From: Candidatus Zixiibacteriota bacterium
GTDB taxonomy: Bacteria; Zixibacteria; MSB-5A5; GN15; JAAZOE01
Direction of reading: 5' to 3'
Length of the DNA: 64,000 nt
NCBI GenBank assembly: GCA_043819555.1
Contig: JBDREQ010000039.1
Span: 1,453 to 65,452 of the forward strand
The notes beneath the pieces were generated by a model, which saw nothing but the letters and a program-made list of their open reading frames with translations, did no database searches and was not told the origin of the DNA. The position numbers and the translations under genes are program-made. Every line of letters begins with the position of its first letter. Position 1 is the stretch's first letter. This document shows positions 20,255 to 36,543 of the stretch, piece by piece.

Positions 20255-20560
20255 TCAGCAGCAACTCTCGTTTGCGGCGTTGGAAGAGCAATCACACGAT
20301 GGTTTGGTACCTTTTAGAATGCCGTTTAATATACCTGCCGCGCATCCAACCCCGCTCCTGACGGAAATTGCCCCGGATTGACAATTCAACGCGCAGGCTC
20401 CGCATTCCATGCATAAATCACGGTACATTAATACCGCCCGCTTGTTTTCAATTCCGAAGACCGCATGAGGACAAACGGTGACACACATTTGACATCCTTC
20501 GCATTTGGATTTATCAAACTCCAGCGTCACAACTTCGGATAAGTATTTTAAAGCCTGCAT
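20255..20560 (-). CDS. hgcB: Mercury methylation ferredoxin HgcB
   Basis: Two CxxCxxCxxxC motifs including CMECGAC, GVGCA, C-terminal CC; directly after hgcA. Confidence 0.95.
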   Translation of the reverse strand: MQALKYLSEVVTLEFDKSKCEGCQMCVTVCPHAVFGIENKRAVLMYRDLCMECGACALNCQSGAISVRSGVGCAAGILNGILKGTKPSCDCSSNAANESCC

Positions 20561-20570
20561 TTTTTAAACC

Positions 20571-21710
20571 TCATAGGAACAATCCAACAATCCATAATAC
20601 GGTTCCCAATATACCAATCGTGATTTGGCACGGCACCGCATATTTCATTTCTTTTAATACCCCGGAAAGCGACGTATAAGTGGACGCCCCCGTAAAATTC
20701 ATTGCGATAAAACTCGAGATGGCGATTATAATAAATATCCAGGCAGCAGACATGAAATATCCCGGGGTAAATTGCGGATAAAAATTGAAAAACAAACTTA
20801 CCGAGGCAATAGTCAATAATCCTATCCAGATGCCCTTCACTGAAAACGAACGTCCCGGCAGTACCGGTAATAAAACAGGAGCCCCGACAATCGCGATTAA
20901 ATAGGCAAAAACGAACAATAGAACGTTTTGTACCCCGTTCGTTGCCAATCTATAGATAGAATATCCGTCGCTTCCCAAACCACTTAAGATAAACATGATC
21001 GCGAGTACTAATAGGAGCTTTTTCAAATAGCCGGCAATTTCCATAGGTATTAGGGTAATCCGCTCGCCAATTTTAAAAGTAACTCGCCGCATTTCAGGGG
21101 TTGCTTTCATGCGATTCTCTAAAAATCGTCTAATATCTGCCGAGAAAACAGGTCCGAAAACAACCCGAAAACCGCTCATCTCTTTAACCCGAAAAGCGCT
21201 GACTCCGGTCGCCCCCAATTGTGGTACGATTATTCTGCGGTGCGAAACAACCTGTTCAAGACCGGAAGTTTTTATCCGGATAACTAACTCATTAGTACCA
21301 AACGTACCTTTTCCCGCCGCGCACCAGACATTGATACCCTTCGTATCTAAAACCAGGCCCCATCCGTCCAAACCGTCAAGGTCAGATCGGAGGTAATCAA
21401 AACTCATTTTGTAATTGGCCGAGACAAATACCGGTGATTTATCCGTCGGCTCTCCAATGGCGTACAATCCCGGAGTGACAATATGCGTTGTCCGGCCTAT
21501 TCCCCAGCGGCGTTTCCAATTTCCGATTTTGTCAGACAAGGTTAAGACCGTGCTAACCTTTGGAATTTTCCCAATTGGCGTGGAAATATGTTTATCAATC
21601 CATGGTTTATTATCCGCAATTAACTCAAATGCAGTATCTGGATTTTTTTGGCTTTCAGGCTGGCTGCAACACTGCCCGTTATTTTGTGAAAGCTCACTCA
21701 CGATGCTCAC
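20571..21710 (-). CDS. hgcA: Mercury methylation corrinoid protein HgcA
   Basis: Cap-helix GINVWCAAGKG, ANYKMSFD, PQLGATGV, C-terminal TMs, MNFTGASTYTSLSGV. Confidence 0.97.
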   Translation of the reverse strand: MSIVSELSQNNGQCCSQPESQKNPDTAFELIADNKPWIDKHISTPIGKIPKVSTVLTLSDKIGNWKRRWGIGRTTHIVTPGLYAIGEPTDKSPVFVSANYKMSFDYLRSDLDGLDGWGLVLDTKGINVWCAAGKGTFGTNELVIRIKTSGLEQVVSHRRIIVPQLGATGVSAFRVKEMSGFRVVFGPVFSADIRRFLENRMKATPEMRRVTFKIGERITLIPMEIAGYLKKLLLVLAIMFILSGLGSDGYSIYRLATNGVQNVLLFVFAYLIAIVGAPVLLPVLPGRSFSVKGIWIGLLTIASVSLFFNFYPQFTPGYFMSAAWIFIIIAISSFIAMNFTGASTYTSLSGVLKEMKYAVPCQITIGILGTVLWIVGLFL

Positions 21711-21715
21711 CTCTA

Positions 21716-22411
21716 TTAAAAAATCAACAAATAAAATCCTGCGATTAGCAAAATACAGCCTGCCGTATAGCGGATAATTTTAGCCGCCCGTTCAGATCTA
21801 AAAATAGCGGCTTTGCCATAAGAGAGCCCGGTTAAGACGGCGGCGGCTGGAAAGGAATAGCCTATCGCAAAGAAAGTCAAAATAATTATTCCCCATAGAG
21901 TGTGCCCCCTGAGAACCGCCAGACCAATCGCACCCGCCAGGGCAGGATTGCAGCCGATAGTACAAGCTGACGTTCCTCCCCCTACGACAAGACCAAAAAA
22001 GGCAGCACCCTTGATTGATTCGGGAACCGTCGGCTTATAATTTGTTACTATTCCCGGAATTTTCCAGGGTATTAAATCAAGAGAAACCGCTCCCAAAAAG
22101 ATTATTATCAATCCGGCCAATGTCTTCCAGTATATCCCCAGAGCACTCCCGGCTATTTGACTGATAAATCCTGCCGCCGCTCCAAGCAATCCCAATGACA
22201 GCATTGTCCCGATCATAAAAAACAATCCCGTAATGGCAATCGTTTTCTTGTCTATCTTTTCCTGTGATCCGCTGTATCCGGCGATAGCCCCCAAAACTGG
22301 TAATGTGCAGCATGAGCTGACCGAAGCCGCCAAACCCAGAACCAGGGAAGCCGGCAATATAATCCAGCCGTATTCGGGATTATCCAATATTTGCCGTAAT
22401 GTGTCAATCAT
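21716..22411 (-). CDS. CcdA/DsbD-family transmembrane thiol-disulfide electron transporter
   Basis: About 6 TMs; SCCTLP in TM1 and CTIGCNP in TM4. Confidence 0.75.
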   Translation of the reverse strand: MIDTLRQILDNPEYGWIILPASLVLGLAASVSSCCTLPVLGAIAGYSGSQEKIDKKTIAITGLFFMIGTMLSLGLLGAAAGFISQIAGSALGIYWKTLAGLIIIFLGAVSLDLIPWKIPGIVTNYKPTVPESIKGAAFFGLVVGGGTSACTIGCNPALAGAIGLAVLRGHTLWGIIILTFFAIGYSFPAAAVLTGLSYGKAAIFRSERAAKIIRYTAGCILLIAGFYLLIF

Positions 22412-22420
22412 ATTGAGTTC

Positions 22421-23032
22421 CTATGTACCGCAATTATTCGGATCACAGGTTGCCGGATCGCATCCACCCGATAAATATGCTTTCATGAGAATTGTTTCGG
22501 ATAGCTCACCAGTCAATATCGCCGGAGCCTTACCCTTTTTGGCTACGACTACCGCCGGTAGATTCGGAATATTAAGATTGTCAACCGCGGAAGAAAACAA
22601 TTCTTCGCCGGGCGCGGTTTTGGCGATTATAATATCTGCTCCGGATTTCCGAATCGATTCGGTAACATCCTCGACCATCCGTGATATTTCGGGATTTTTT
22701 TCCAAAGCCGAGCCTGCTCCTTCAAGAATAAGAAATAAAAAATCCGAATCGACCAGTAAATCATCGGTGAAAAATGAAGTTGTTTCAACCTGGCCAGGGT
22801 CAACACTCGCATTGGCGATTTCCCTTTCCTGATATCCAAGTGAGTAAATGGCTAATGCGATCGCCGTTAGCATGATAATCGAAAATATGATATTTTTTGC
22901 CTTTCGCCCCATTAATGATTGCCTGCCGCTATCAGTTGTACAACAACCAGTCGGTCCGCAATCGCAGGAATCAGCATTCAAATTATTCAATCGCTTGTTA
23001 TTATCGTTGCTCTCGAGATTATTGTCACCCAT
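22421..23032 (-). CDS. Cys-rich membrane-anchored hypothetical protein, possibly thioredoxin-like
   Basis: N-terminal CDCGPTGCC, one TM, C-terminal GGCDPATCDPNNCGT. Confidence 0.65.
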   Translation of the reverse strand: MGDNNLESNDNNKRLNNLNADSCDCGPTGCCTTDSGRQSLMGRKAKNIIFSIIMLTAIALAIYSLGYQEREIANASVDPGQVETTSFFTDDLLVDSDFLFLILEGAGSALEKNPEISRMVEDVTESIRKSGADIIIAKTAPGEELFSSAVDNLNIPNLPAVVVAKKGKAPAILTGELSETILMKAYLSGGCDPATCDPNNCGT

Positions 23033-23054
23033 TGCAATTACCTTTCCTATTCAA

Positions 23055-23414
23055 TTATCCTGAAAGATCAAAAACGTCATTCAGCTTCCCGCTGCAACAG
23101 CTTTTAAAAAACTGAGCCAGCTCAGTTATTACCTCTTCAGAAATCCAACACCTGGTTTTTTGCCCCACTTTTTCAAGTTGAATTAGCCCGGATTGATTGA
23201 GTTCTTTTATATGATGTGAAATTGTAGAAGGCGCAAGGTTCAGCTGGCTACCCAGGCGGCCGATACAATTCTGATCATCATCGCCCAATTCGCATTTTTC
23301 ATCAATGCTGCAACAGGAAACCAAAGTCAGAAACAACTGAAACCGGTTTGAATTCGATAGTGCCTTAAAAATCCTAACATATCCCTTATTATCTATAATT
23401 CGATTGTTCGACAT
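23055..23414 (-). CDS. arsR: ArsR/SmtB-family metalloregulator
   Basis: FKALSNSNR, LNLAPSTISHHIKEL...GLI; multiple Cys including two CC pairs. Confidence 0.9.
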   Translation of the reverse strand: MSNNRIIDNKGYVRIFKALSNSNRFQLFLTLVSCCSIDEKCELGDDDQNCIGRLGSQLNLAPSTISHHIKELNQSGLIQLEKVGQKTRCWISEEVITELAQFFKSCCSGKLNDVFDLSG

Positions 23415-23521: not shown

Positions 23522-25846
23522 ATGGCATCATCAGGTCAGCATCCAAAACTGCGTTCGGATCTTGTCGTATCCGAACAGGAAACTGGCGGGCAAACGCTAT
23601 TCATACTGAAAGACCCGATTACTTTTCGATATTTTCGGGTACGCGCGCCTGAGTTTTATCTAATCAACCAGTTTGACGGGAAAACTGATAATGCGAGTAT
23701 CTCAAAACGGATGTTGGACAAGTTTGATTTACAAATCTCAACCGAAGCTATCGAACAATTCGCCAATAAGGTCGAGGCTCTTTATTTTTTCGAAGGTTCT
23801 CGGTCGGAATATGAAATATCATCGGGGCGATATAAACCTCAGGCAAAAAAGAGCCTTTTTTCAAATTTACTATTTGTAAAACTCAAGGCGTTTAATCCTG
23901 AAGGGATATTAAACGCCATATACCCTGCCGTAAAATTTCTATTTAATCCTGTCGCGGTTACGGCCATGATTCTACTAACTTTTTCCGGATTCTTAATTTA
24001 CTCTGCCAATTTTTATGAATTTCGCTTTAATCCCACAGCCATTTTTTCTTTGGGATCGCTCGTGACCATTTTCATTGTTCTGGCATTTATACTACTGCTC
24101 CACGAATTTGCGCACGCCTTAACCTGTCGGCATTACGGCGGACACGTGAGGGAAATGGGCTTTCTGCTTTTATATTTTCAGGTTTGTTTTTACGCAAACC
24201 TATCCGATTCGTGGCTTTTCAAGAAAAAATCGCATCGTCTGGCGGTTCTTTGGGCAGGACTGTTTTTTCAAATGGTTATGTTTTCCGCTGTTGTTTTTGG
24301 ATGGCGTGTTACCGTTATCGGGACCGGAATAAATCATTTTTTCTGGCTGGCGGCTAATATCAATCTTCTGGTAATCCTGATCAATTTTAATCCTTTGATT
24401 AAGCTTGACGGTTATTATCTCTTATCCGAAATTATCAATATCCCCAACCTGCGTGACCGGTCATTTCAATACTTAAGACAAGGATTCAAGAAATTCATCG
24501 GAATCGATTTATCATATAGAAATCCACCAAAACGCCAGGCGCGGATAATGCTTTTTTATGTCATTTTCGCTTCTTTTTACTCTCTACTCTTAATTCTGTA
24601 TGTCGGTCGAGCCGCATATCGGTTCCTGGTCGAAAACCTCGCCGGTAGCGGTTTTTTATTGTTTTTAGTGTTGCTGATTATTATTTTTCAAAAACCGGTC
24701 AGGCAATTTATAAGATTCGTAACTAAAAGAGAGGTCTTGAAGGCGATGGCATTCAAACCAAGAAATATAGTGATATTCACTAGCGTTCTTATTGTAGCGA
24801 TTGTCTTCCTGTTTATAATCCCCTTCCAGAGTCAGGTGGGAGCCGGGATAACCATTCAGCCCAAAGCGGAATTTCGAATTGTTCATCAATCTGCCCAGGG
24901 GCGTCTGGATTTATATCTGAGGGAAAGCGGCACAGAGCGAATATTTGGTACCGAACATATTCAATTATCATCCGGGGATTTAGCCGTATTGAGGCTTGTA
25001 CCTTTGGTCAAAGAAGGCGATATTGTAAAAAAAGGCGATACTTTGGCAACGATAATCTCCAGTCAGGTGTTGGGTAACCTTGATGCCGCTCGCGCTGAGC
25101 TTGACCGTTTGCAAAATGAAATAGCTCTGATACAATCGCCTCCCAAACCTGAAGAAATCACCTCGGCGCAGGCGGCGGTCAATGCGGCTAAAGCTAACGT
25201 TGAGCAAATGCAAAACGATGTCGATAGAAACAGGTCTTTATTTGAGAAAAATCTAATCGCTCGACAGGAAATTGAACAATCTGAATCATACCTGATTGTA
25301 GCCCAGTCGAATTTAAAAGAAGCTCAGGCAAAACTGGAATTAATCAAGGCGCCTCCAAAAAAAGAGGAAATCGACATCCTCAAATCGAAGATATCAACCC
25401 AAAATGCCTCAATACGTTATCTCGCCACTCAGGAGGCCGCCCAGGCAATTGTTACTCCCATTGATGGAGTTATCGTCGCGCAGTATCGCGATGAATTGTT
25501 GTTCAAAGTGGCCGATATGTCTCAAGCGGAAATCACCATGCCAATTGCCGATAACTTCCTCAAAATGATCCGGACCGATGCTGATGTTTCGGTTAAGGTT
25601 CGCAGTTTCCCCTCGCAGCTTTTCAACGGCCAGGTCATACAAATTTCCAATTCGGGAGATTTAGCTTTCTCCACCGACGACAGGTCGCGTTTCCCCGTTT
25701 ACGCTTTACTCGATAACCCCGATGGAGTTCTCCAGGACGGAATGAGCGGGTACGCAAAAATCTCCTGCGGTAAATCGTCTCTCTTCAATATTTTGTCAAA
25801 TCGCATAAAATCCAACCTGCGGGTAGAATTCTGGTCCTGGTGGTAA
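23522..25846 (+). CDS. RRE(PqqD-like) / M50 site-2 protease / HlyD-like adaptor fusion protein
   Basis: N-terminal PKLRSDL..ILKDP...YF...EFYLINQFDGK (RRE-like); HEFAH and NFNPLIKLDGYY (M50 zinc ligands); multiple TMs; VKEGDIVKKGD, coiled coil, TPIDG, GMSG.AKI (membrane fusion protein). Confidence 0.85.
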   Translation: MASSGQHPKLRSDLVVSEQETGGQTLFILKDPITFRYFRVRAPEFYLINQFDGKTDNASISKRMLDKFDLQISTEAIEQFANKVEALYFFEGSRSEYEISSGRYKPQAKKSLFSNLLFVKLKAFNPEGILNAIYPAVKFLFNPVAVTAMILLTFSGFLIYSANFYEFRFNPTAIFSLGSLVTIFIVLAFILLLHEFAHALTCRHYGGHVREMGFLLLYFQVCFYANLSDSWLFKKKSHRLAVLWAGLFFQMVMFSAVVFGWRVTVIGTGINHFFWLAANINLLVILINFNPLIKLDGYYLLSEIINIPNLRDRSFQYLRQGFKKFIGIDLSYRNPPKRQARIMLFYVIFASFYSLLLILYVGRAAYRFLVENLAGSGFLLFLVLLIIIFQKPVRQFIRFVTKREVLKAMAFKPRNIVIFTSVLIVAIVFLFIIPFQSQVGAGITIQPKAEFRIVHQSAQGRLDLYLRESGTERIFGTEHIQLSSGDLAVLRLVPLVKEGDIVKKGDTLATIISSQVLGNLDAARAELDRLQNEIALIQSPPKPEEITSAQAAVNAAKANVEQMQNDVDRNRSLFEKNLIARQEIEQSESYLIVAQSNLKEAQAKLELIKAPPKKEEIDILKSKISTQNASIRYLATQEAAQAIVTPIDGVIVAQYRDELLFKVADMSQAEITMPIADNFLKMIRTDADVSVKVRSFPSQLFNGQVIQISNSGDLAFSTDDRSRFPVYALLDNPDGVLQDGMSGYAKISCGKSSLFNILSNRIKSNLRVEFWSWW

Positions 25847-26115
25847 CTTTTTTTATTCCCCTTAATTAATTGTCTAATAATAAGTTGCGTGATTTTGTGT
25901 GATTCTTCGCATTAAATAATTGTCCCAGGCACTTGACAGAGAAGAAATATAATACTTGATTTGCATGCTGAATAGCAGTTTTCAGCACACAGGGATGTGA
26001 AATTGTTACACGGATTGTAACTTCGGTGCTTCATCCCAAAGACAGATAAGAGGAAACCACTCAGCATTATGCTGATGGCACTATATCGGACTCAAATACA
26101 TAGGAGGTGAACCCG

Positions 26116-26187
26116 ATGATCTACGAACTCGAAATCGAAGTTCTAGAAGAGAAGATTGCTCCTGGAATGAGCATGGGTGGTCAGTAG
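26116..26187 (+). CDS. 23-aa small peptide MIYELEIEVLEEKIAPGMSMGGQ, putative RiPP-like precursor
   Basis: AGGAGGTGA SD at 26102-26110, 5 nt before ATG; LExLEExIAP leader-like motif; downstream hairpins; next to the RRE-M50 gene. Below the ORF-track cutoff. Confidence 0.8.
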   Translation: MIYELEIEVLEEKIAPGMSMGGQ

Positions 26188-26264
26188 AATTGAAACCGCG
26201 AAGGAATTAACCCTCGCGAATTTCAATTCTGTCAAGTCAGGGGCCGCCATTGGCGGCCCCTTTC
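26186..26264 (+). terminator. Two hairpins 3' of the peptide ORF; the second is a likely terminator
   Basis: AGAATTGAAA...TTTCAATTCT (26186-26230) and AGGGGCCGCCA-T-TGGCGGCCCCT-TT (26239-26263), the latter overlapping the kinase stop codon. Confidence 0.6.
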
Positions 26265-29200
26265 CTATTGCCTAATACAACTTTTAAAGACTTTAACCGT
26301 CCCAAAAGCTTAATAATTCTCTTATCGGTATAGTATTTCTGTAGTTTTTCAGAATCAACTATTTTTTCTGATATTTTTTTAAGTACTTCAAGTGCATTTT
26401 GGGAATGAACAAACGAATCTTCGAATTCTTTAAGTTCAAATGTAATTTCGGATAATAAGCACGATGCCTGCCATTGTTCGGGAAGCATTCCGTTTTTTTG
26501 CGCAATCTTTAAAGCCTTGTTCAAAGACAACTTAGCGATGTCGAGTTTTCTTTCGCTGAATTCACACATGGCCAGATCTATATGGTATCTCGGCAAATCA
26601 ATATCTTCATCAATCGTGCCAAAATATAGTCTGGCATTATTCATAAATTTCTCAATATTTTTAAATTCATGGTTTTCAATTTCTTTTTCCAGCCGAGCCA
26701 AACCAATCACTGAAAACTCGCGTTGTGTATTCAATTTGGATTGTAGCTCTTCCGCCGCCCGGATATGTTTTTGATCTCCTGAAATATTAAAGTTATGAAT
26801 GTGTATGAAAAATTGGGCCAGTTTATCATCAATATCGACCGCCATTTCTTTGGCTTTCCTTAAATAATCTTCGGCCCTGTCAAAAACGTTTAAATCTTTA
26901 TATAATTTTGCAAGTTCCAAATAACAGGGCAAAATTGAAGCGCTGTGTTCCAGTTGCAATGCGGAAGATAAGGCATTTCGGATTTGAAATTCCGCTTCTG
27001 AGTAGACACCCATACGGCGAAGTATTTGCCCGGTCAGGCGTGACAGGGTAACTTTATGCGCTTCATCGTTCAAAATATCCGCGATCGCTTTTCCTTCCTG
27101 CAGGAATTTTAGGGCTCCACTTAACCTGCCAGCTAAGAGGCTTGCTTCCACAAGGTTTTCGTAATTAAGGAGTTGTTCTACTTTGATACCCATTTCTAAA
27201 TTAAGGTTAAGCGATTTCTCAAAAGCGCCAATGGCTGCAGATGCCTTCCCCATCATAAAATAGGTGAAACCCAGATTATTCCAGGTGCGGGCAATTTCCC
27301 CTTTATCACCCAGTTTTTTTTTGATTTCCAGGGCTTCGGAAAGATGTTTTACTCCATTCTCATATTCTCCACGCACAACATAAATGGAACCGATATTGTT
27401 CAGGCTTGATGCGATTTCACGTTGAGATTTTAGTTGTCTTTGCAATTCCAGGGCTTGAATATAATGTTCAAGGGCTTTATCCATTTTTCCGGCAACCCAG
27501 TACATATTGCCGAGATTATTGAGAGTCTGTGAAAGCCCCAATGGATCATCCAAACGCTCATACAATATCCTGGCTTGATTTAAAACCCGTATCCCCGAAG
27601 AGTAATCCGATTTGTCCTTATATAGGTCACCCAAAATTTTATAAGATTGGGCCGCAAGCAAATCATTTTCACCATTTTGGGAAAGTTCCACGACCCTGAC
27701 AAAAGAATGTTCGGCGAATTCAAGATACCCGGCCTCTTTTTCAACATTGGCTCGCCGAAACATCAATCTGGCCTGCTGGGAAATATCTTTCAGGCTTTTT
27801 GCAGCCTTTAGAGCCAGTTCAAGATACTCAAGCGATTTTTTCTGACTGACCGGAGTCTTATCAATGGCTGTGAGTAAAGATTCGATAGCCTTTTTGTAAT
27901 CTCCGGCCTGATAAAGTAAGTTTCCTCTTAATACCGCGAATGAATCAGAATTATCAAATATTTTTTCGATTTTCTTTGAAATAGTCCTGCGCGTTGATAA
28001 TTTCAACCTTCGGTTCAGGGAAGTGAGCAAAATCCGACGGCGTGAATCTGGAATATCAAACCACCACCTGAGGGCTGTTTTGGAATCAGAACAGATTATC
28101 TGAGCTATATCTTCGACTTTTTCCTCTACATCAGCCACTGCCAGGGCAAGGGCCAATTTGTTAAGCGAAAGCGAAGAGTTGTGCAATGGCCGCAATGCGA
28201 ATCGGGTCAATCGTTCAGGCCATTCAATACAATCAATTGATTGGTTTTGCCATCCCCAGTGGCCGTCCAGACGAGCAAACCGGCAATTATCAAAATTGTG
28301 TTCCAGAATTATTCTGACCCCAGCCGGATCAAAAAGCAGATCCTTTTCAATAAAATGCAATTGTTCAATTGAGAAACTGTGTTTTCCAAAAATCTCATAC
28401 AGCTTATTATCATTAAGCGCATCCAAGCCGTAAATAAGATGTCGAGGCCGAATTGCTTTCCTGAAGGGATATATGGAGCCCGCTTTGGCCAATTTTTCCA
28501 GTAATTCAAAAGCCGATGATGGCCTTTTTTCCGGATTTATTTCCAATAATGAGGATATTAAATCTTTTGTATTTTGCGAGAATTCACGAGCCAGCCCGGT
28601 TAGTCCTGGCCTTTCCCCTTCGGTTATCTGAGCGTTAATCTCAAGCGGATCGTTTTTTTCAGATTGAAATGGCAATGAACCCGAAGCCAGGTAGTAAGCC
28701 ATAACTCCAAAGGAAAACAAATCCGATCGCGGCGTTATTTTCTGGCCCATAACCACTTCTGGAGCCATGTATCCGACAGTTCCTGAGGTTTTGGGATTGG
28801 TTGCAATCCGGTGATCAGACGCCAGAGAAAAATCAGAAAGCTTTACATAAAATAATCGATTCAGCGCAAAATTAACATCCTCAAAACCCGGGGGACAGAA
28901 TACATTTGAGGGTTTTATATCATTGTGACAATAACCGGCGCTATGCAAAACATAAAGCGATGCCGCCGCCGCCGATAAAATCGCAAGGAGTTTATCTTCG
29001 GACAATTTCCCCGCGTAATTTTCAAGTATTTGCCCTTCACAAAATTCGATAGTAATAAATTTTCGGCTGGTGGAGGCAATTCCAATATCAAAGCACTTGA
29101 CAATACCGGGAAAATGAATTTTCTGAGAAATTAATTTTTCGGTTTCTATAAGCTGATCGTTTATATTTTCGAAAAAGCATTTTATTGCTATTGGTCTGGA

Positions 29201-29305
29201 AATATTTAGATGATGGGCCAAAAACACTTCGGCCGTGCCGCCCTCACCGATTTTTTTTATTACTTTATAATCCTCAGGGAAAGTTCTAATCACCGAACGC
29301 CTCAT
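26237..29305 (-). CDS. Hanks-type Ser/Thr protein kinase with C-terminal TPR array
   Basis: IGEGGTAEV, AIK, HNDIKPSN, DFS, GTVGYMAPE, SDLFSFG; TPRs such as SQTLNNLGNMYW, ASSLNNIGSIY, ARTWNNLGFTY. Confidence 0.9.
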   Translation of the reverse strand: MRRSVIRTFPEDYKVIKKIGEGGTAEVFLAHHLNISRPIAIKCFFENINDQLIETEKLISQKIHFPGIVKCFDIGIASTSRKFITIEFCEGQILENYAGKLSEDKLLAILSAAAASLYVLHSAGYCHNDIKPSNVFCPPGFEDVNFALNRLFYVKLSDFSLASDHRIATNPKTSGTVGYMAPEVVMGQKITPRSDLFSFGVMAYYLASGSLPFQSEKNDPLEINAQITEGERPGLTGLAREFSQNTKDLISSLLEINPEKRPSSAFELLEKLAKAGSIYPFRKAIRPRHLIYGLDALNDNKLYEIFGKHSFSIEQLHFIEKDLLFDPAGVRIILEHNFDNCRFARLDGHWGWQNQSIDCIEWPERLTRFALRPLHNSSLSLNKLALALAVADVEEKVEDIAQIICSDSKTALRWWFDIPDSRRRILLTSLNRRLKLSTRRTISKKIEKIFDNSDSFAVLRGNLLYQAGDYKKAIESLLTAIDKTPVSQKKSLEYLELALKAAKSLKDISQQARLMFRRANVEKEAGYLEFAEHSFVRVVELSQNGENDLLAAQSYKILGDLYKDKSDYSSGIRVLNQARILYERLDDPLGLSQTLNNLGNMYWVAGKMDKALEHYIQALELQRQLKSQREIASSLNNIGSIYVVRGEYENGVKHLSEALEIKKKLGDKGEIARTWNNLGFTYFMMGKASAAIGAFEKSLNLNLEMGIKVEQLLNYENLVEASLLAGRLSGALKFLQEGKAIADILNDEAHKVTLSRLTGQILRRMGVYSEAEFQIRNALSSALQLEHSASILPCYLELAKLYKDLNVFDRAEDYLRKAKEMAVDIDDKLAQFFIHIHNFNISGDQKHIRAAEELQSKLNTQREFSVIGLARLEKEIENHEFKNIEKFMNNARLYFGTIDEDIDLPRYHIDLAMCEFSERKLDIAKLSLNKALKIAQKNGMLPEQWQASCLLSEITFELKEFEDSFVHSQNALEVLKKISEKIVDSEKLQKYYTDKRIIKLLGRLKSLKVVLGNRKGAANGGP

Positions 29306-31089
29306 TAATCATCTGAATCAAGTTGACTGCAGGGTAATGAGATAGTAAATGTCGTGCCTTGTCCTTTCACGGAATCGACCCAAATATCACCGCCATGATT
29401 TTTTATAATTTTCAGACAATTGGCCAGGCCTAATCCATGACCTCCTTGCTTGGTAGTAAAGTTCGGCTCAAATATTTTTTCAATATTGTTTTCCGGAATA
29501 CCCGCGCCGTTATCGGAGACGCAAACCAATAGAGTATTCGAATTGTCGCCCAATTTGCACTGCAATTCAATTGAAGGATTGTCAGCTTCTTCCAAAGCAT
29601 CGGCGGCATTATTTAGGAGATTAAGCAATACTTGCTGGATTTGGCCAACATCGATATTAACCTCAGGCAACTCTCCCCCACACAACATCTTCATTTCAAT
29701 TTGCGCAAATCGCCTCTGAGTTTTTATGGTAAATAAAACATCATCCAATAGATGTTTGATGTCAAACTTGACCATTTCGGTTTCAAGCTTGGAAAAATCC
29801 ATAAGGCCATTTGTAAATCTCTTGATTTTACCGATATTGTCAACGACGCTGCGAATACTCTTGTCAACTTTGTCATACTGCCTCCGGTCAATGTTAATCT
29901 GAATCAGCTCGGCATTATTGGATATGATTGAAAGAAAATTATTCAATTCATGCCCAATGGAAGCAGCCATCTCGCCTTTGGCAACCAGTTTTTCTGACAG
30001 GATTACATATTTCTCAAGTATCACATTTTCGGTAATATCCTCAACAATGAGAATGGCTCCGGTTTTTTGGCCCGGCAGAGAATTGGTCCTTGACATTTTC
30101 AATGACAGTACTTTTTCTTCATATCCGGTATTATGAAAATACCGATCTTCTACAAAATCGCCCACTCCTGATATTACCGGTTCAATCATCTTGCGCCATT
30201 TATCATATTCCTTTTCCGGCACAAGATCGATAAAATTATTCTGACCTCTCTCGTTAGCGCCGTCAATGATTGAACCTTTATTTACCTGGAATATCTTAAA
30301 ACTAACATCGTTTATGGTGATAAGATTATAATCCGAATCAATCACTATGATTCCGACGGGGGATTGATCAATTATATCCTCATTGTATTGCTTCATGCGA
30401 CTCAGATGGCCGTAGAGCTGGGCGTTATGAATAGCAATTGCCGCCTGCTGTGAAAACAATTCAAATAAATATAAATCGGATTTCAAAAACAGCTTGGCCT
30501 GAGACGAGTTATCAAGATAGACAACTCCAATTACCTTGTTTTTAAGCTTAAGCGGAACGCACATGATTGAGCGGAGATGTAATTCGACAATCGATTTTTG
30601 ACTGGAATATCTTTCATCCTCCAGCGCGTCCGAAGTATAAATCGCATTTCCCGATTGTACGACTTTATTGGCTATTGAAAACGAAATCTTAAAAGTATCG
30701 TCCTGCGTTTCTTCATGGCGAATATTATGAGCGGTTTTGTACTGCAGCGTCCCATCTCTATCGAGCAACATAATAAAACCGCGTTCAGCCGAAAGTAATT
30801 CCACGGCCTTTTCCATAACGACCTGGAGAACATCTTCCAGGATTAAGGCTGAATTGATTCCGACTGAGATTTCCAAAATGGCTTTGAGATCATCGAGCCG
30901 AATCTTGTGAGTGTCAGCTTCTTCTGATATGCGAGGATTATTGCTGACTATATCATTCAGTGTCTTTTCCATTTCAGCCAGTACATTGTCGACCTGAAAT
31001 CGGTCTGTTGTTGAGCCCACATCGTCCCCCGATGATTTCGTATTCTCCACCCCCGTTTTATTCATATCTTTTTTCATAAAATTGGACAT
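29305..31089 (-). CDS. Cytoplasmic GAF-PAS sensor histidine kinase
   Basis: GAF (AERGFIML, SIMCVPL), PAS, H-box GHELNN, N-box LLNNAADA, DNGAGI, GHGLGL; TAATG overlap with the kinase gene. Confidence 0.92.
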   Translation of the reverse strand: MSNFMKKDMNKTGVENTKSSGDDVGSTTDRFQVDNVLAEMEKTLNDIVSNNPRISEEADTHKIRLDDLKAILEISVGINSALILEDVLQVVMEKAVELLSAERGFIMLLDRDGTLQYKTAHNIRHEETQDDTFKISFSIANKVVQSGNAIYTSDALEDERYSSQKSIVELHLRSIMCVPLKLKNKVIGVVYLDNSSQAKLFLKSDLYLFELFSQQAAIAIHNAQLYGHLSRMKQYNEDIIDQSPVGIIVIDSDYNLITINDVSFKIFQVNKGSIIDGANERGQNNFIDLVPEKEYDKWRKMIEPVISGVGDFVEDRYFHNTGYEEKVLSLKMSRTNSLPGQKTGAILIVEDITENVILEKYVILSEKLVAKGEMAASIGHELNNFLSIISNNAELIQINIDRRQYDKVDKSIRSVVDNIGKIKRFTNGLMDFSKLETEMVKFDIKHLLDDVLFTIKTQRRFAQIEMKMLCGGELPEVNIDVGQIQQVLLNLLNNAADALEEADNPSIELQCKLGDNSNTLLVCVSDNGAGIPENNIEKIFEPNFTTKQGGHGLGLANCLKIIKNHGGDIWVDSVKGQGTTFTISLPCSQLDSDD

Positions 31090-31152: not shown

Positions 31153-31839
31153 CTAATCTGACTCTGTTTCCAGCTGATCAATTTTGAATTGTGGAGATGT
31201 AATACGATAAGTTATTTCACCAAATCCGATTACTTCCAGGAATTTTCCCAGAACAGAACCGAGAAAACTATCTTCTGCTGAAGTTTGGCCGGTTTTGGCT
31301 GAAAACTCGGAGATTTGATTGATTTCGGATGGCGATATTGAACGAGACATAATCTCAACATTAAATCTAAAATGTTCATCGACGGGGAACCGGGCGAGCA
31401 GTGTTAGCCTAAACTGAAGAGAGTCAGCGAGATAATCGGATAGATCCATTTGATTTGAAAATAATTTTGATTCTTTGGAGTTTGGAGAAAACCTGATGCC
31501 ATAATTATCTTTGGTCAGATCATGATTTAGAAGTATGGCTATTTTGCTCTCAAAAACTGATCTGTAACCAATAAGTTTTTGGGGCTTTTCAACTTTGAAT
31601 CGAAGATTTAGAAAAATATCCAGACCGGTTAACAAATCTTCCAAAACCGGCTGGGTCAAAACGGGAGTCAAATCCAGCCAAATTGAGATTGAATCGTTCG
31701 ATCCATAAATATCGTAATCAAATTCTATAGATTCATCATCAGCGTAAGTTACGGAAATAAGGACGCAATAGATTAAAAACAGAAATATTGCGCCCATTTT
31801 GCAAATATTGTTTGTTGCCATTACCAGTTTACAAATCAA
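31153..31839 (-). CDS. Hypothetical periplasmic protein (DUF4390-like)
   Basis: Signal-like N-terminus; context beside an NtrYX-like pair; family call tentative. Confidence 0.5.
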   Translation of the reverse strand: MICKLVMATNNICKMGAIFLFLIYCVLISVTYADDESIEFDYDIYGSNDSISIWLDLTPVLTQPVLEDLLTGLDIFLNLRFKVEKPQKLIGYRSVFESKIAILLNHDLTKDNYGIRFSPNSKESKLFSNQMDLSDYLADSLQFRLTLLARFPVDEHFRFNVEIMSRSISPSEINQISEFSAKTGQTSAEDSFLGSVLGKFLEVIGFGEITYRITSPQFKIDQLETESD

Positions 31840-31848
31840 AACAGCCTA

Positions 31849-33660
31849 TTAATCAAGGAAAGTTGAAATATCGCCAACCGCTACGAATCGAGCGTAAAAA
31901 ATTGGGTAATGGTTATCCTGATCCAGACGCTTTGATATAAATATCTTTAAATTGCTGTCAATATCAACGCCGACACTTATAGAGCTATACCATTTGTCAC
32001 TGGAATTCAACCGATTCTCTGATATTTTGCCCCCGTCGTACCTGATAAATGGACTTAAGTCGGATTTTGGAATACTAAAGAGGTATTCAATTCCGGCATA
32101 AACAAATTCATTCCCTCGAAATTCTTTATGTCGATACCCGTGCATGGTTCCCAAACCGCCTATAAAGAATTGACGGTTGAGCGGTATGCATTCACCTGAT
32201 AAATAACCGTAAGCGCCGGTTAGATTCAAATACTGATAGCGATTGAACCGGTTATAACGATCAAGTCGAACCTCAAATCGTTTAAAATCAAAGTCTCCGT
32301 TATACTCCTCCGGAGAGTATTCATATCGGGCATACCCGAGCCAGCCCCGGCGGGGATTCTTTTCATCATCTCGATTATCAATTGTATATGTCAGCATCAG
32401 ACTGCTTACCGTTTTATCCTCAAAGTCAGCTTTCAGATTTTGTAATTCACCGTGAGGTACCATATTATAATTGCCTCGAAATTCCTTATTTCCGAATACT
32501 GACCATAAAAACGGATGGGCATCAAGCCAGCGCTGTTTTTCCGACAAATATCCGATTTCAAACCGATTCCACCCCCACGGACTAAACCGAACATAACCAT
32601 AACCGCCCTCAGCCTCATAAAAATCTTTCCAGTCCTCATTGAAAAACAACGCAAATATTGTATTCTCATTATCTGAAATGATCAGATCATCGCTCGATTT
32701 TAGTAACCGATATGCGCGGCCGCCCAGCTCCAGAGGCATTTTGCCTCGTATCACCGTTTGAGACACCGACAGGCTGTATCTCCATCGTTTGGAGGCGAAG
32801 GCATATCCACCCTTAAGATCGAATGACGGCAAAAGCGAATCGGCGTGGCGGTATTTTATACCCGAGAATAATGACAGGCCGTCAACACGATTATAAGAAG
32901 CATCGCCACTCAGCCTGATATCGCTGTCGTAACTTTTCCAGCGCCGCGCCCTGGATCTTCTCGTGGTTCGTTGCCCTTTTTTCGATTTTATTTCACCATA
33001 AATTGATGATTTTTTATCGAGACGAACCCGGCCCATAACAGATATTACGTCACCCCTGACAACCGCCTTACTGCCAATGGTAATATCTCCCATTAAAGCG
33101 ATGACGTCTTTGTTTACTTCGCCATCGACTGTGATATCGCCGCGAAAAGCGATAACCGATCCCCGCAAAAAACCGTACTCTTCAACATTGAGTAAATTCT
33201 TAAAGGATAGTTTATCCCGTGTACGTCTCCGAAATGATGACTCCCGTTTTTCTGCATCATGGCCGGTAAATTCAAGAATATATTCGCCTTCAGCTTCTCC
33301 TGAAGTATAATTTATCATTTTTACATCTTCGAATAAGAGAGAAAACTCGGGAGACTCGATTCCTGTCCTATCAATAGTAAAATCGGGGCCGCAGGAAATC
33401 GTTCCGTTCTGATAAGTGAAATCACTGATATTGAAAACGTAATTACGCAATTCTCCATTGGCAAAAACAACAAATTCCCAGGTATCGGAATCCGCGATCA
33501 ATTTGGCCAACTGGTTTTGTGAAGTATCCGGGGCGTAGGTTTTATAATCGTCCGCGAATACCTGCGGCGTGGCGCAGATTGCTATCGCCATTATCATCAG
33601 ACTTACTTTAATCCATCTAAACATATCGATCTCCTCCATATTTATTATGGAGACATACAA
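31849..33660 (-). CDS. Omp85/BamA-TamA-family outer-membrane protein with bactofilin-like beta-helix segment
   Basis: Signal peptide; YNRVDGL; FFIGGLGTMHGY..KEFRGN lid-loop motif; GDITVDGEV/GDVI repeats. Confidence 0.75.
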   Translation of the reverse strand: MYVSIINMEEIDMFRWIKVSLMIMAIAICATPQVFADDYKTYAPDTSQNQLAKLIADSDTWEFVVFANGELRNYVFNISDFTYQNGTISCGPDFTIDRTGIESPEFSLLFEDVKMINYTSGEAEGEYILEFTGHDAEKRESSFRRRTRDKLSFKNLLNVEEYGFLRGSVIAFRGDITVDGEVNKDVIALMGDITIGSKAVVRGDVISVMGRVRLDKKSSIYGEIKSKKGQRTTRRSRARRWKSYDSDIRLSGDASYNRVDGLSLFSGIKYRHADSLLPSFDLKGGYAFASKRWRYSLSVSQTVIRGKMPLELGGRAYRLLKSSDDLIISDNENTIFALFFNEDWKDFYEAEGGYGYVRFSPWGWNRFEIGYLSEKQRWLDAHPFLWSVFGNKEFRGNYNMVPHGELQNLKADFEDKTVSSLMLTYTIDNRDDEKNPRRGWLGYARYEYSPEEYNGDFDFKRFEVRLDRYNRFNRYQYLNLTGAYGYLSGECIPLNRQFFIGGLGTMHGYRHKEFRGNEFVYAGIEYLFSIPKSDLSPFIRYDGGKISENRLNSSDKWYSSISVGVDIDSNLKIFISKRLDQDNHYPIFYARFVAVGDISTFLD

Positions 33661-33767
33661 ATCACATGCCTGATATTAATTTCATTATTGCGTCGCAACT
33701 TACGAGAATCCAATTGAATTCACCATGTATTTTTTACACGATACCTTAGGTTCTGACTGAGTATAAT

Positions 33768-35120
33768 TTACATTATTTTGAGTGATTTCAATTTTCGGGA
33801 TAGATTCCCGCGATCAATATTTAAATGCCGGGCTATCGCGGCGATATTGCCATCGTGCTTCTGATATAAATCAGAAAGAAATCCCTTTTCAAATTGGCGC
33901 ACGGCATGAGTAAGTTTATTCTCATCTCTTACAGAATCAAAATTAAAATCGCCTTTCCCCCACTGAAGCATTTCTTCAATCATTCCGACTGTAATTTCGC
34001 AGGGTTCGAATGTAAACATTATTTGCTGAACGAAATTTCTTAACTGTCTGATATTCCCTGGCCAGCCTTGGGCAGCCAGATATCCGAAAGCATCGGTTGA
34101 AAAAGAATAATGTTTTTCCGCGGCATCGGACTGTAGAAAATGATTAATCAAAAGTGGAATGTCTTCCACCCGGTCTTTCAAAGCTGGCACTTCTATAGAT
34201 ATCACATTGAGCCGGTAATACAGATCTTCGCGAAAAGAAGATGACTCTATTTGTTTCTTTAAGTTCTGGTTTGTGGCCGCCATTATATGGCAATTAGAAT
34301 TCTGAGTCGCATCAGAACCGACCTTTTCGAATTGACCCGATTCCAAAACGCGCAATAATTTAGTCTGTGCGGCCAGCGACAAATCTCCTATTTCATCAAG
34401 AAAGAGCGTTCCCTGCCCGGCTTTTTCGAACCTGCCGATTCTATCCTGTTGAGCTCCCGTAAAAGCGCCCTTAACATGACCGAATAATTCTGATTCAAAT
34501 AGATTTTCAGGAATAGCCGGGCAATTGACTATTACCAGGGGCTCCCCCCGGCGGGAGGACTTATAGTGAATATTATAAACGACTAATTCCTTACCGACGC
34601 CGTTTTCACCGGTAATTAAAATAGTCGCGTTGCTGTCTGCGGCTTTTGCGATTAGTTGTTTCATCCTCCGGATTGGTTCCGATTGTCCGATAATCGCATA
34701 CTTATCCAGAATTTTCTTAGATAAATTCTCCTCGGTTTTAAGCGACTTGCTCAGTCTCAAGGCGTGCCTGATGGTAATGAGTACTCGTTCAGGTACAAGC
34801 GGTTTTTCAATAAAATCGAAACTCCCCAGTTTAATTGCCATTACGGCCGTCGGTATATCCGATTTGCCCGAGATAATTATGACCGGAGTATTTTTAAGGC
34901 GATCGCCATTGTCGTCCAGAAATGTAATTCCATCCTTGCCCGGCATTTGAATATCAAGAAGGATCAGGTCAATATCCTGTCTTTTTAATATCTTTTCACC
35001 TTGTTCAGCCGATTCGACCGCAACCGTTTCGTACCCTTCATCGATCAGCATGCCGGATAGAGAGCTCCGAATGTATTTTTCATCGTCAATAATTAATATC
35101 ATGGCTTTCATCTTCCTCAA
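33768..35120 (-). CDS. sigma54-dependent response regulator (NtrX/NtrC-like)
   Basis: REC (IIDDE, LLDIQMP), GENGVGKE, GAFTGA, LFLDEIG, C-terminal HTH. Confidence 0.93.
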   Translation of the reverse strand: MRKMKAMILIIDDEKYIRSSLSGMLIDEGYETVAVESAEQGEKILKRQDIDLILLDIQMPGKDGITFLDDNGDRLKNTPVIIISGKSDIPTAVMAIKLGSFDFIEKPLVPERVLITIRHALRLSKSLKTEENLSKKILDKYAIIGQSEPIRRMKQLIAKAADSNATILITGENGVGKELVVYNIHYKSSRRGEPLVIVNCPAIPENLFESELFGHVKGAFTGAQQDRIGRFEKAGQGTLFLDEIGDLSLAAQTKLLRVLESGQFEKVGSDATQNSNCHIMAATNQNLKKQIESSSFREDLYYRLNVISIEVPALKDRVEDIPLLINHFLQSDAAEKHYSFSTDAFGYLAAQGWPGNIRQLRNFVQQIMFTFEPCEITVGMIEEMLQWGKGDFNFDSVRDENKLTHAVRQFEKGFLSDLYQKHDGNIAAIARHLNIDRGNLSRKLKSLKIM

Positions 35121-36543
35121 CCTCGCCCGTCACCTCAAATCGGGCGATTGTCTGTCCGTCACTTGAATTAATCTTAAATCGACCTCCGTGCTCGATTATA
35201 ATTTTCTCAGCAATCGTTAATCCCAATCCGGTTCCATTTGGCCGGGTTGTGAAATACGGCATAGTTGCCGATTTTAGAGCCTGAACGTCGATATTCGCCG
35301 CATCATTAACAACTTCAAAATAAACTTTATTGCCGCTTGTACTATTAGATATTTTAATTATGCCATTCGGTACGCAAAATTCAATGGCATTTTTTATAAT
35401 ATTGACCATAACTTCGCGCAATCGATCGGCATCCCCTTTGATTAAGCACTTCTTTGGGGCCTGATTGAATTCAAAATCGAATTGATCAAGTTGCCCCCGA
35501 TGCAGCGTTACGACTTCACGGCACAGTTGATTGAGGTCCATTAATCGTAGTTTTATTTCGGGCATCTTCGACAGAGAACTATAATCATTGGCCATTCTTT
35601 CAAGATGGGAAATTTCGCTTGAAATAGCTTCGAGAGAATCAGAGTAATCCTTGTACTCCGGCCTGTTTTTCAATTTATTCTTAAGGCGATAAAGAGAAAT
35701 TGAAATCGGCGTCAAGGGATTTTTTAATTCATGAGCCATACGGCGGGCAAATTCCTGCCAGGCTGCCATCCGCTCCGCGGATACGAGTTTCTGACGATTA
35801 TCTTCGAGATCCGCGACCATTTTTTTAAATGAACGGAATAGATTATTTACTTCATCGGTTCCCCAAATTTCGATTTCAGGCAATTCCCCGCTCGAAATTT
35901 TCCGGGACGCATCAGCTAAACTCTCAAGGGGGATTGTAATAGATGCAGATAATCGTCTTGACATATAATACGCCGCTCCGCCGACAATTACAAAAACTAA
36001 AAGCCCTCCGTAAATTATAAATTGCAAAAGACCCGGCTGGATATTTCGATAATGACGGCTCTCGCGAAGGCTCATCGCGGCGGCTTCAAAACCATTCAAA
36101 TATTCAGCGCGCATTATAAAACCGCCGGATCTTTTAATATTCCCAACTTCTGAGGAAGCCCCCAGGATAATATAATCATCTCCAACGTCACGAATAAATT
36201 GGCCGGAAGGCTCAAATGATATGAAGATCGAATCAGGCATTTCAATAAACTCGTCAGATTTGATAACAACCGTTGTCTGCCCGGAATCAATAACTATCCA
36301 ATCAAGGGAATTTGAAACTTCTCTAATATGATTTTGAATAATTAAGTTCATGGCAATTACCTGCAATTTCGATTCGACCAGACGCATTGAATTGATGGTT
36401 CGGTCTGGAGATAGATCTTCCATTATCTTATCCGAAGACTGAATTGTCAAATCAAGAAGATAATACCCGGCCAATACGATTATCAATGATGGAGCCAATG
36501 CGAATAAAATGAGATGACGGAATATTTTTGAGCGCAAATACAT
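35086..36543 (-). CDS. Membrane HAMP histidine kinase (NtrY-like)
   Basis: Two TMs, HAMP, AWQEFARRMAHELKNPLTPI, GTGLGL. Confidence 0.9.
   Translation of the reverse strand: MYLRSKIFRHLILFALAPSLIIVLAGYYLLDLTIQSSDKIMEDLSPDRTINSMRLVESKLQVIAMNLIIQNHIREVSNSLDWIVIDSGQTTVVIKSDEFIEMPDSIFISFEPSGQFIRDVGDDYIILGASSEVGNIKRSGGFIMRAEYLNGFEAAAMSLRESRHYRNIQPGLLQFIIYGGLLVFVIVGGAAYYMSRRLSASITIPLESLADASRKISSGELPEIEIWGTDEVNNLFRSFKKMVADLEDNRQKLVSAERMAAWQEFARRMAHELKNPLTPISISLYRLKNKLKNRPEYKDYSDSLEAISSEISHLERMANDYSSLSKMPEIKLRLMDLNQLCREVVTLHRGQLDQFDFEFNQAPKKCLIKGDADRLREVMVNIIKNAIEFCVPNGIIKISNSTSGNKVYFEVVNDAANIDVQALKSATMPYFTTRPNGTGLGLTIAEKIIIEHGGRFKINSSDGQTIARFEVTGEVEEDESHDINY

Follow-up and report, generated by a model that had tools for sequence, protein, structure and literature searches.

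The window analysed here, a stretch of 64,000 nucleotides from a Candidatus Zixiibacteriota bacterium, contains an unannotated gene for a peptide of 23 amino acids on the plus strand (26116..26187), with a gene for a protease-adaptor fusion upstream of it and a convergent gene for a kinase-TPR protein on its other side. The peptide gene begins with an ATG at 26116 and reads MIYELEIEVLEEKIAP-GMSMGGQ-stop, with its last base at 26187. The sequence TAGGAGGTGA at 26101–26110, followed by ACCCG and then the ATG, includes a Shine-Dalgarno sequence, AGGAGGTGA (26102..26110, +), located 5 nt upstream of the start codon and complementary to the 16S rRNA end of this genome, GATCACCTCCTTT. An earlier note on this DNA had pointed to an unusually long match to the anti-Shine-Dalgarno; the element is present and orthologues keep one, but the perfect match is nine bases long (AGGAGGTGA), and this 9-mer was seen 13 times genome-wide against 20.8 expected, with no excess over chance. 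The Shine-Dalgarno alone therefore proves nothing, and its strength was dropped as evidence for the gene.

A −35-like element, CTTGACA (25932..25938, +), probably belongs to a promoter of the gene's own, as CTTGAC was found upstream of the peptide gene in 87 of 119 orthologues versus 5 in shuffles. In the window copy no canonical −10 region was found at 16–18 nt from CTTGACA, and a promoter scan calls no promoter there. A conserved upstream operator, as might serve autoinduction, was also sought, with the −35 element and AT-rich words being the only enriched words. Between the converging genes lie two hairpins (26184..26261, neither strand assigned; fold z = −6.6), of which the one at 26239–26261 is terminator-like on the plus strand and extends into the final codons of the kinase gene, while that at 26196–26219 is terminator-like on the minus strand.

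The case for the peptide gene being real rests on its conservation across relatives. Among 29 related loci examined, two had no downstream DNA and were left out, and a Shine-Dalgarno-led orthologous ORF follows the M50 protease gene in all 27 others. A peptide profile built from 51 sequences and searched in 201 genomes drawn from Zixibacteria matched 171 of them; one match (G081, within an 821-codon frame) was false, giving 170 of 201 genomes, mostly with a single copy. Of 119 distinct DNA copies, all have L(−7) and E(−6) and 118 have P(−1), with the conserved residues encoded by varied synonymous codons and Ser(+4) of the core encoded by both AGY and TCN. The window copy differs from a same-genus copy by two substitutions, both synonymous. 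No frame-disrupting change was seen among the 119 copies, though their collection had been limited to intact ORFs. The exact window peptide is absent from a collection of 15 billion proteins, in which two of three longer relatives looked up were present. We conclude that a phylum-wide, unannotated peptide gene is real. The hidden 23-codon gene proposed in the earlier note is thus upheld by the 27 loci, the 170 genomes and the codon-level conservation; the note had named a lack of homologues or broken frames as grounds for abandoning it, and homologues proved abundant, with no frame breaks in the copies collected as intact ORFs.

The division of the peptide into a leader of 16 residues and a core of seven, made of G, M, S and Q only, had also been read correctly from the window sequence. 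The leader, MIYELEIEVLEEKIAP (26116..26163, +), is acidic, with five Glu in its 16 residues, and has no hydrophobic run. Its family consensus, YxLxxExLEx[KR]IAP, and the analogy with daptide leaders suggest that it is an RRE-binding motif, with a cut predicted after Pro(−1). The core, GMSMGGQ (26164..26184, +), is the predicted mature signal on the basis of the family form and of the covariation of its terminal Gln with a residue of the kinase-TPR protein (see below). Across the family, cores range from 6 to 20 residues in length, with 8 residues in 64 of 119 and a usual form of xGxSxGGQ, and Ser is found at +4 in 81 of 119. Ser and Thr are both missing from 5 of 101 cores, some of these beside intact kinases, and none of the 101 ends in Thr. 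No family of tailoring enzymes recurs near the peptide gene in 60 loci clustered by sequence, so the core was taken as unmodified. It should also be noted that many cores (GFSQGG, GLSQGG, GYSLGG, GMSMGG) resemble GxSxG, the nucleophile elbow of alpha/beta-hydrolases. This is probably a coincidence, and a hydrolase elbow was set aside as an identity for the core, the resemblance being supported by no test.

The upstream gene (23522..25846, +) encodes a 774-residue fusion of an RRE, an M50 intramembrane zinc protease and a HlyD-type adaptor, predicted to be a processing and export protein. The model of its N-terminal part matches the lasso RRE 6jx3_B with a Z of 10.0 and an rmsd of 2.6 over 83 aligned residues; HlyD and M50 domains were found with Pfam, and NF041824 matches at 192 bits, under its cut-off of 300. 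The protein has six hydrophobic segments. The protease residues H194, E195, H198 and D296 (HExxH plus Asp) are invariant in 68 of 68 copies, and the adaptor domain is kept throughout the fusion family, which was found at E<1e-30 in 172 of the 201 genomes (counted from the table). The model for EpeP/YydH (NF058609) gave 25 bits against a cut-off of 225. In the search for a C39 peptidase or ABC ATPase, Pfam and NCBIfam show M50 and adaptor domains only, and there is no conserved ABC neighbour in the 60 loci; TolC-family genes lie elsewhere in the genome and may provide the outer channel for the adaptor-fused protein. On the other side of the protease gene, window positions 20255–23414 on the minus strand carry the mercury-methylation genes hgcA (424 bits against a cut-off of 275) and hgcB (119 bits against 99) and a gene for an ArsR regulator, transcribed divergently from the protease gene. 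Outside a few members of the family, none of these is kept next to the locus.

The convergent gene (26237..29305, −) encodes a predicted receptor of 1022 residues in which a Ser/Thr kinase is followed by a degenerate STAND region and a TPR array. No hydrophobic segment was found and the protein is expected to be cytoplasmic. Its N-terminus is a Pkinase domain of PknB-like fold, with no HTH or three-helix bundle, and the kinase catalytic residues are invariant in 72 of 72 copies. TPR families span residues 455–825, and the model is all-helical with a pLDDT of 93. AAA_16 was detected between kinase and TPR in two of five relatives scanned, and Walker A is present in 13 of 72 copies and missing in 59, including that of the window. 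Foldseek with the whole model returned kinases as its only matches, Pfam scans showed no toxic effector domain, and weak matches below cut-off were obtained to the TPR models of FxSxx-COOH systems and HaaT (55 bits for NF040586, whose cut-off is 300). The account in the earlier note had the peptide and the M50/HlyD gene right but missed this convergent gene, though the evidence below points to its product as the core's partner.

Directly upstream of the kinase-TPR gene lies a gene for a soluble GAF-PAS-histidine kinase (29305..31089, −), a possible output partner that is kept when the module is lost. Histidine kinases of about 400–420 residues without the N-terminal GAF part were seen in L055, L163, L314 and L316, which come from genomes without the kinase-TPR gene. 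This loss of GAF in several kinase-TPR losers hints that contact is made through the GAF domain. Further upstream in the same orientation (31153–36543, −) are genes for DUF4390-like and Omp85-family proteins, a sigma-54 response regulator and a HAMP histidine kinase, the last two of which we take to be ntrYX-like. A small gene and a phosphatase gene often stand upstream in the kinase operon (L061, L082, L091, L136, L153); these are presumably NUDIX-like and SpoIIE/PP2C-like, respectively, and the phosphatase could counter the kinase.

Of the 17 families with the system, 16 show the peptide and kinase-TPR genes tail-to-tail, while the junction between the histidine kinase and Omp85 genes of the same operon is less stable, being kept in 8 of 14 families examined (hand count). 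The protease fusion is missing from 29 genomes, 23 of which are at least 90% complete, and in 22 of these 23 the peptide is missing as well (the G081 match being counted as false). Together with the RRE fold, this bears out the tie between the peptide gene and the M50/HlyD gene that had been proposed from the window alone. Nineteen of the 23 have neither peptide nor kinase-TPR orthologue (two of the 19 have just a 1750-residue paralogue of the kinase-TPR protein), three, from genus g84, have the kinase only, and one (G187) has both. At all five module-loss loci that were read, the upstream flanking gene, presumably chloride-channel-like, now abuts the histidine kinase gene. Most of these losses may each have needed no more than one deletion, and certain genera may have inherited theirs from a common event. 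The f4 loss took two events, since the protease gene lies at an unlinked locus in relatives of the f4 loser. Peptide and kinase are kept, with no protease found, in G169, G187 and G191 (84, 93 and 83% complete), which, like the g47 genomes described below, counts against the three genes being strictly one unit.

The peptide gene is not adjacent to the kinase gene in family f10 and in G026, G100, G060, G013 and G158. In genomes where the genes have separated, the peptide gene lies with the kinase gene in about 44 of 51, with the protease gene in 5 and with neither in 2 (hand count). The median gaps flanking the peptide gene are 283 nt and 53.5 nt (n = 58 and 18), so that about 84% would be expected from gap lengths alone, and the genomes counted are kin and not independent; a tendency of the peptide to stay with the kinase was for this reason rejected as support. 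Four genomes of genus g47 have lost the kinase-TPR gene but have the protease and 4–7 peptide copies; in this genus the cores have turned into S[RK][WYF]GxD type with the leader unchanged, in favour of a link between core and kinase-TPR protein. Arrays of 4–7 peptide genes with such cores, of six residues, were read at L043:8500-9700, L055:6880-8320 and L163:6190-7230. Most g47 copies are preceded by a motif of approximately (T/C)GTAAG-N14-CCAAATA (read by eye), which is unlike the usual upstream motif and suggests another sigma factor and a changed role for the g47 peptides.

To relate the core to the TPR array, positions 2, 5, 6, 9, 12 and 13 of each repeat, which are presumed, as in TPR proteins generally, to face the groove, were scored. 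At these positions the central repeats carry a ladder of conserved Asn residues. In the three g84 genomes, which represent one event, peptide and protease were lost, the kinase was kept and the Asn ladder was lost: the groove consensus is held at 3–4 of 19 positions compared to 9–11 of 19 in the sister group, with structural TPR positions having fallen too. Identity of the TPR core between g84 and its sisters is 26–36% against 46–60% among the sisters, and that of the kinase 41–45% against 43–48%. Over 74 pairs of core and TPR, canonical cores go with a groove score of 0.83 and other cores with one of 0.64, the corresponding values being 0.74 and 0.66 for non-groove TPR positions and 0.76 and 0.74 for the kinase. 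This gap in groove score was matched by 10 of 2000 random column sets; in phylogenetically independent pairs the aggregate score went the same way in about four and the opposite way in none (p 0.125), which is not significant.

A single column stands out more clearly. Ser633, at repeat position 2 of the array (27407..27409, −), is present in 49 of 49 pairs whose core has G[GD]Q and in 5 of 25 pairs without it (phi 0.85, next column 0.60 of 961), and when the trait is relaxed to [GD]Q the counts become 50 of 50 for cores ending in Gln and 4 of 24 for the others (phi 0.88, against 0.58 for the runner-up among 961 columns). The Gln trait was picked after inspecting the data and three definitions were tried. 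Under the first definition, Ser633 went the same way as the trait in 6.6 of 8 independent pairs and the opposite way in none, the next best column, of 920, reaching 4.2. Among 36 held-out pairs outside the alignment, which are mostly kin of the training pairs but include families f15 and f19 unseen in training, Ser was found in 23 of 23 with Gln and was lacking in 12 of 13 without, so that the rule holds in 35 of 36; three of these rows (L164, L220, L231) are low-score partial alignments. Family f16 has Ser633 without the core Gln in four cases. In a control with the protease, the best of 734 columns had a phi of 0.56 and was no outlier (54 pairs; g47 and non-phylum rows omitted). We read the covariation as a sign that the core Gln probably contacts the TPR groove directly. 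It should be noted that it fits docking of a substrate equally with binding of a signal.

The explanation that we favour, and hold to be fairly probable, is that the core is a processed and exported peptide signal which is read by the kinase-TPR protein as its receptor; the binding, cleavage, export and re-import steps are ones that we infer. The cytoplasmic RRE would bind the leader, as in other RRE pathways, and the M50 site would then cut between P and G after Pro16, as proposed for daptides. The core may leave through the adaptor to a TolC-family channel without a dedicated ABC pump. It would re-enter cells, possibly by an OPT-family transporter, and sit in the TPR groove lined by the Asn residues, where its Gln would lie at Ser633, and switch the kinase. 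The STAND switch is intact in some families, and output could possibly pass through the neighbouring GAF-PAS histidine kinase.

Re-import is the weakest step of this mechanism. An OPT transporter was proposed because Opp is essentially absent, the Opp/Dpp ATPase (PF08352) being found in 1 of 26 relatives and not in this genome. The only family-5 binding-protein match (L306:5914-10516, in the window's own genome, C40) fronts a two-component pair and no permease operon; POT is absent and CstA present. An OPT-family transporter is found in 26 of 26 relatives and is kept in 39 of 40 genomes that lost the system, and OPT was accordingly rejected as a dedicated importer. With Opp nearly absent and OPT kept in the losers, no importer is tied to the system. 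In Cryptococcus, a quorum peptide is reported to be taken up by an OPT (PMC7537855).

The absence of Opp fits a cell-autonomous sensor, in which the precursor or the cut core would bind the kinase-TPR protein without leaving the cell that makes it, and the RRE-M50-HlyD protein would serve as a sink for its removal. What such a circuit would sense is export, translation or the state of the envelope, and not cell density. The covariation and the co-loss speak for it as well, peptide and kinase persist in the three genomes without a detectable protease, and the cores are nearly identical across the phylum, which leaves little species specificity. Against this, the outward adaptor domain is kept throughout the fusion, g47 has multiplied its peptide genes without a receptor, as would fit an exported product, and the variable C-terminal extensions of the cores suggest trimming outside the cell. 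We regard the cell-autonomous circuit as unlikely, although it is the strongest of the alternatives.

Since the covariation is compatible with docking, the kinase-TPR protein may instead be a tailoring enzyme, with the TPR docking the core and the kinase phosphorylating its Ser to give an exported phosphopeptide. The frequent Ser at +4 of the core (81 of 119) and the invariant catalytic residues of the kinase would agree with this. The 5 of 101 cores without Ser or Thr, some beside intact kinases, do not, and nor do the conservation of the kinase in the peptide-less g84 and the retention of peptides without a kinase in g47. The layout of kinase, STAND region and TPR with an adjoining histidine kinase is also sensor-like, and phosphorylation of the core is thus judged improbable.

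A role in biological conflict, with the processed peptide being an alarm or toxin that acts with the STAND-TPR protein as effector, is very improbable. The architecture does parallel actinobacterial peptide-processing systems described in section 24 of PMC7159879, some families carry AAA_16, and the matches to FxSxx-COOH-system and HaaT TPR models, weak and under cut-off, point in the same direction. Yet the locus is near-core, single-copy, syntenically stable and slow to change, 59 of 72 copies have no NTPase motif and the Pfam scans show no toxic effector domain. Least credible of all is a narrower reading along the lines of the earlier note, with the peptide only a minimal cargo or an unmodified microcin-like product of M50/HlyD export and the kinase-TPR gene an unrelated neighbour, for while two-gene units of peptide and RRE-M50-HlyD do occur without an adjacent kinase-TPR gene in other phyla and in g47, and rearranged genomes keep the peptide gene beside the kinase gene no more often than expected from the gap lengths, the joint loss, the decay of the TPR after peptide loss and the Ser633/Gln covariation all speak against it.

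The proposed peptide signal and its receptor were compared with known systems. Cytoplasmic TPR peptide receptors are described as a trait of Bacillota (PMC9765709). As in the RRNPP(A) systems (Rap/Phr, NprR/NprX, PlcR/PapR, Rgg/SHP, ComR/ComS, PrgX, AimR/AimP; PMC9765709, PMC10202637), a short propeptide gene adjoins a gene for a cytoplasmic TPR protein, the product is C-terminal and of 6–8 residues, receptor-only and multi-peptide lineages exist, and a site-2 (M50-clan) protease is involved, namely Eep in the maturation of the Rgg, ComR and PrgX peptides. RRNPP(A) systems have HTH or three-helix bundle outputs and Sec-signal or SHP-type hydrophobic leaders, whereas here a Ser/Thr kinase followed by a STAND region takes the place of those outputs and the leader is acidic and of RRE type; a dedicated RRE-M50-adaptor fusion, the absence of Opp and the diderm host also set the present system apart.

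The daptide leader, ELExMEAP with Pro at −1, is found beside an RRE-site-2 protease fusion (10.1101/2023.03.08.531785). The daptide pairs MpaA/DapA and MpaP/DapP, as presented there, share with the present system an RRE N-terminal to a site-2 protease and an E-L-E-x-x-x-A-P leader. They differ in that here no core of 101 ends in Thr, HlyD is fused, NF041824 falls below cut-off, and no genes of MpaB/C/D/M type (dehydrogenase, aminotransferase, methyltransferase, DUF-RRE) or ABC genes are conserved in the 60 loci. The peptide-processing systems with AP-ATPase (STAND)-TPR proteins, including FxSxx-COOH, in section 24 of PMC7159879 likewise combine a small precursor, a metallopeptidase releasing a C-terminal peptide, proposed there as signal or toxin, and a coupled protein with TPRs, of STAND type there and here with AAA_16 and Walker A in some copies but not in that of the window. 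Theirs are rapidly diverging conflict loci with a zincin-like peptidase and often radical SAM, whereas the locus here is stable and near-core, its protease is an M50 within the membrane that is fused to RRE and adaptor, and its effector is a kinase; no radical SAM neighbour family, as in FxSxx-type systems, was seen at the loci. In EpeP/YydH an M50 protein is thought to cleave and export a ribosomal peptide (PMC10885120), but there is no radical SAM epimerase here and RRE and HlyD are fused. Unlike PCAT/T1SS substrates, the leader ends in AP with no double-glycine, and an adaptor is present with C39 and ABC absent at the locus. The literature, searched mostly without subscription papers, gave no description of the system, and the main text of RRE surveys has no mention of M50/HlyD, although their supplements may list these proteins.

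The earlier note had also compared the leader with a motif of planctomycete exported proteins and had asked for a search of the rest of the genome for other proteins bearing it. The leaders of LEPR-XLL, Planc_extracel and ammosamide-lymphostin (NF033737) proteins are similar in having an acidic-hydrophobic LE-x-[RK] near the N-terminus, but the window peptide matches none of these models, with one of 51 family members each at E=0.13 and E=0.019 (the former for LEPR-XLL, NF012209), and PF07595 (Planc_extracel) has no match in either the window peptide or the family members. Here the motif ends in IAP and is followed by seven residues and no large extracellular body. In this genome LEPR-XLL has 0 matches at E≤1 and there is no Planc_extracel match, so the comparison was not supported; the peptide is also the only leader match above 10 bits in the genome, and no other cargo was found.

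Outside the phylum the leader is more widespread. A pattern scan was made in which 80 of at least 120 matching stretches were read, so that the counts are lower bounds. The leader heads Gly/Asn/Pro-rich peptides of 39–91 residues on at least 17 non-Zixibacteria contigs, labelled as Verrucomicrobia, Acidobacteria, Eisenbacteria, Gemmatimonadota, Planctomycetota, Deltaproteobacteria and Nitrospiria, and among the matches listed an RRE-M50 gene lies at most 5 kb away on 14 of these 17; three of four genomes without an adjacent RRE-M50 copy carry the RRE elsewhere. The occurrence of the same leader beside RRE-M50 genes in other phyla makes a broader M50/HlyD-linked leader route, as suggested in the earlier note, plausible. 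Look-alikes of the kinase-TPR protein (E≤1e-85) occur in three of ten non-Zixibacteria genomes bearing the peptides, none of them on the peptide's contig.

Several of these loci deserve mention. Long cores with a repeated GYEGQPGNQGG (L209, L217, L224) or of the form PGNNNPP-NNTNNPGNEG-GGQVSTG (L179, L195, L196, L197), all from outside Zixibacteria, are shared across phyla, and the precursors of both kinds adjoin stand-alone RRE-M50-HlyD genes without obvious tailoring enzymes. A protein of 1061 residues (L215:1865-5047, −) has the leader ELEERIAP and no NCBIfam match, and its genome has an RRE-M50 gene. Seven contigs titled Ignavibacteria (L189, L212, L231, L232, L248, L255, L211) have a locus of Zixibacteria type, and their labels are possibly loose; on L211 an orphan 25-residue peptide has neither neighbour within 5 kb.

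More tentatively, and with somewhat more doubt than confidence, we propose a phylum-wide peptide quorum sensing in diderms, assembled from components that are not known to act together, in which a RiPP-type leader would be read by a pump-less exporter made of RRE, M50 and adaptor, and an NLR-like kinase-STAND-TPR protein would be the cytoplasmic receptor for a re-imported peptide of 7–8 residues. This kind of peptide signalling has so far been described mainly in Gram-positives, and the phylum here is Gram-negative. If this is true, the majority of genomes in a diderm phylum would have a counterpart of the cytoplasmic TPR peptide receptors, one whose output is of kinase-STAND type, and peptide signalling would be extended accordingly. 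To our knowledge, the ligands of bacterial STAND-TPR kinases are mostly unknown, and the core would be a self-made ligand for one of them. The precursor of 23 residues is the smallest substrate seen here for the widespread RRE-M50-HlyD proteins and so offers a cheap test of cleavage and pump-less export, while the Gln/Ser633 pair offers a direct swap of specificity. The near-universal xGxSxGGQ signal could, if the proposal is true, let different species of Zixibacteria hear each other.
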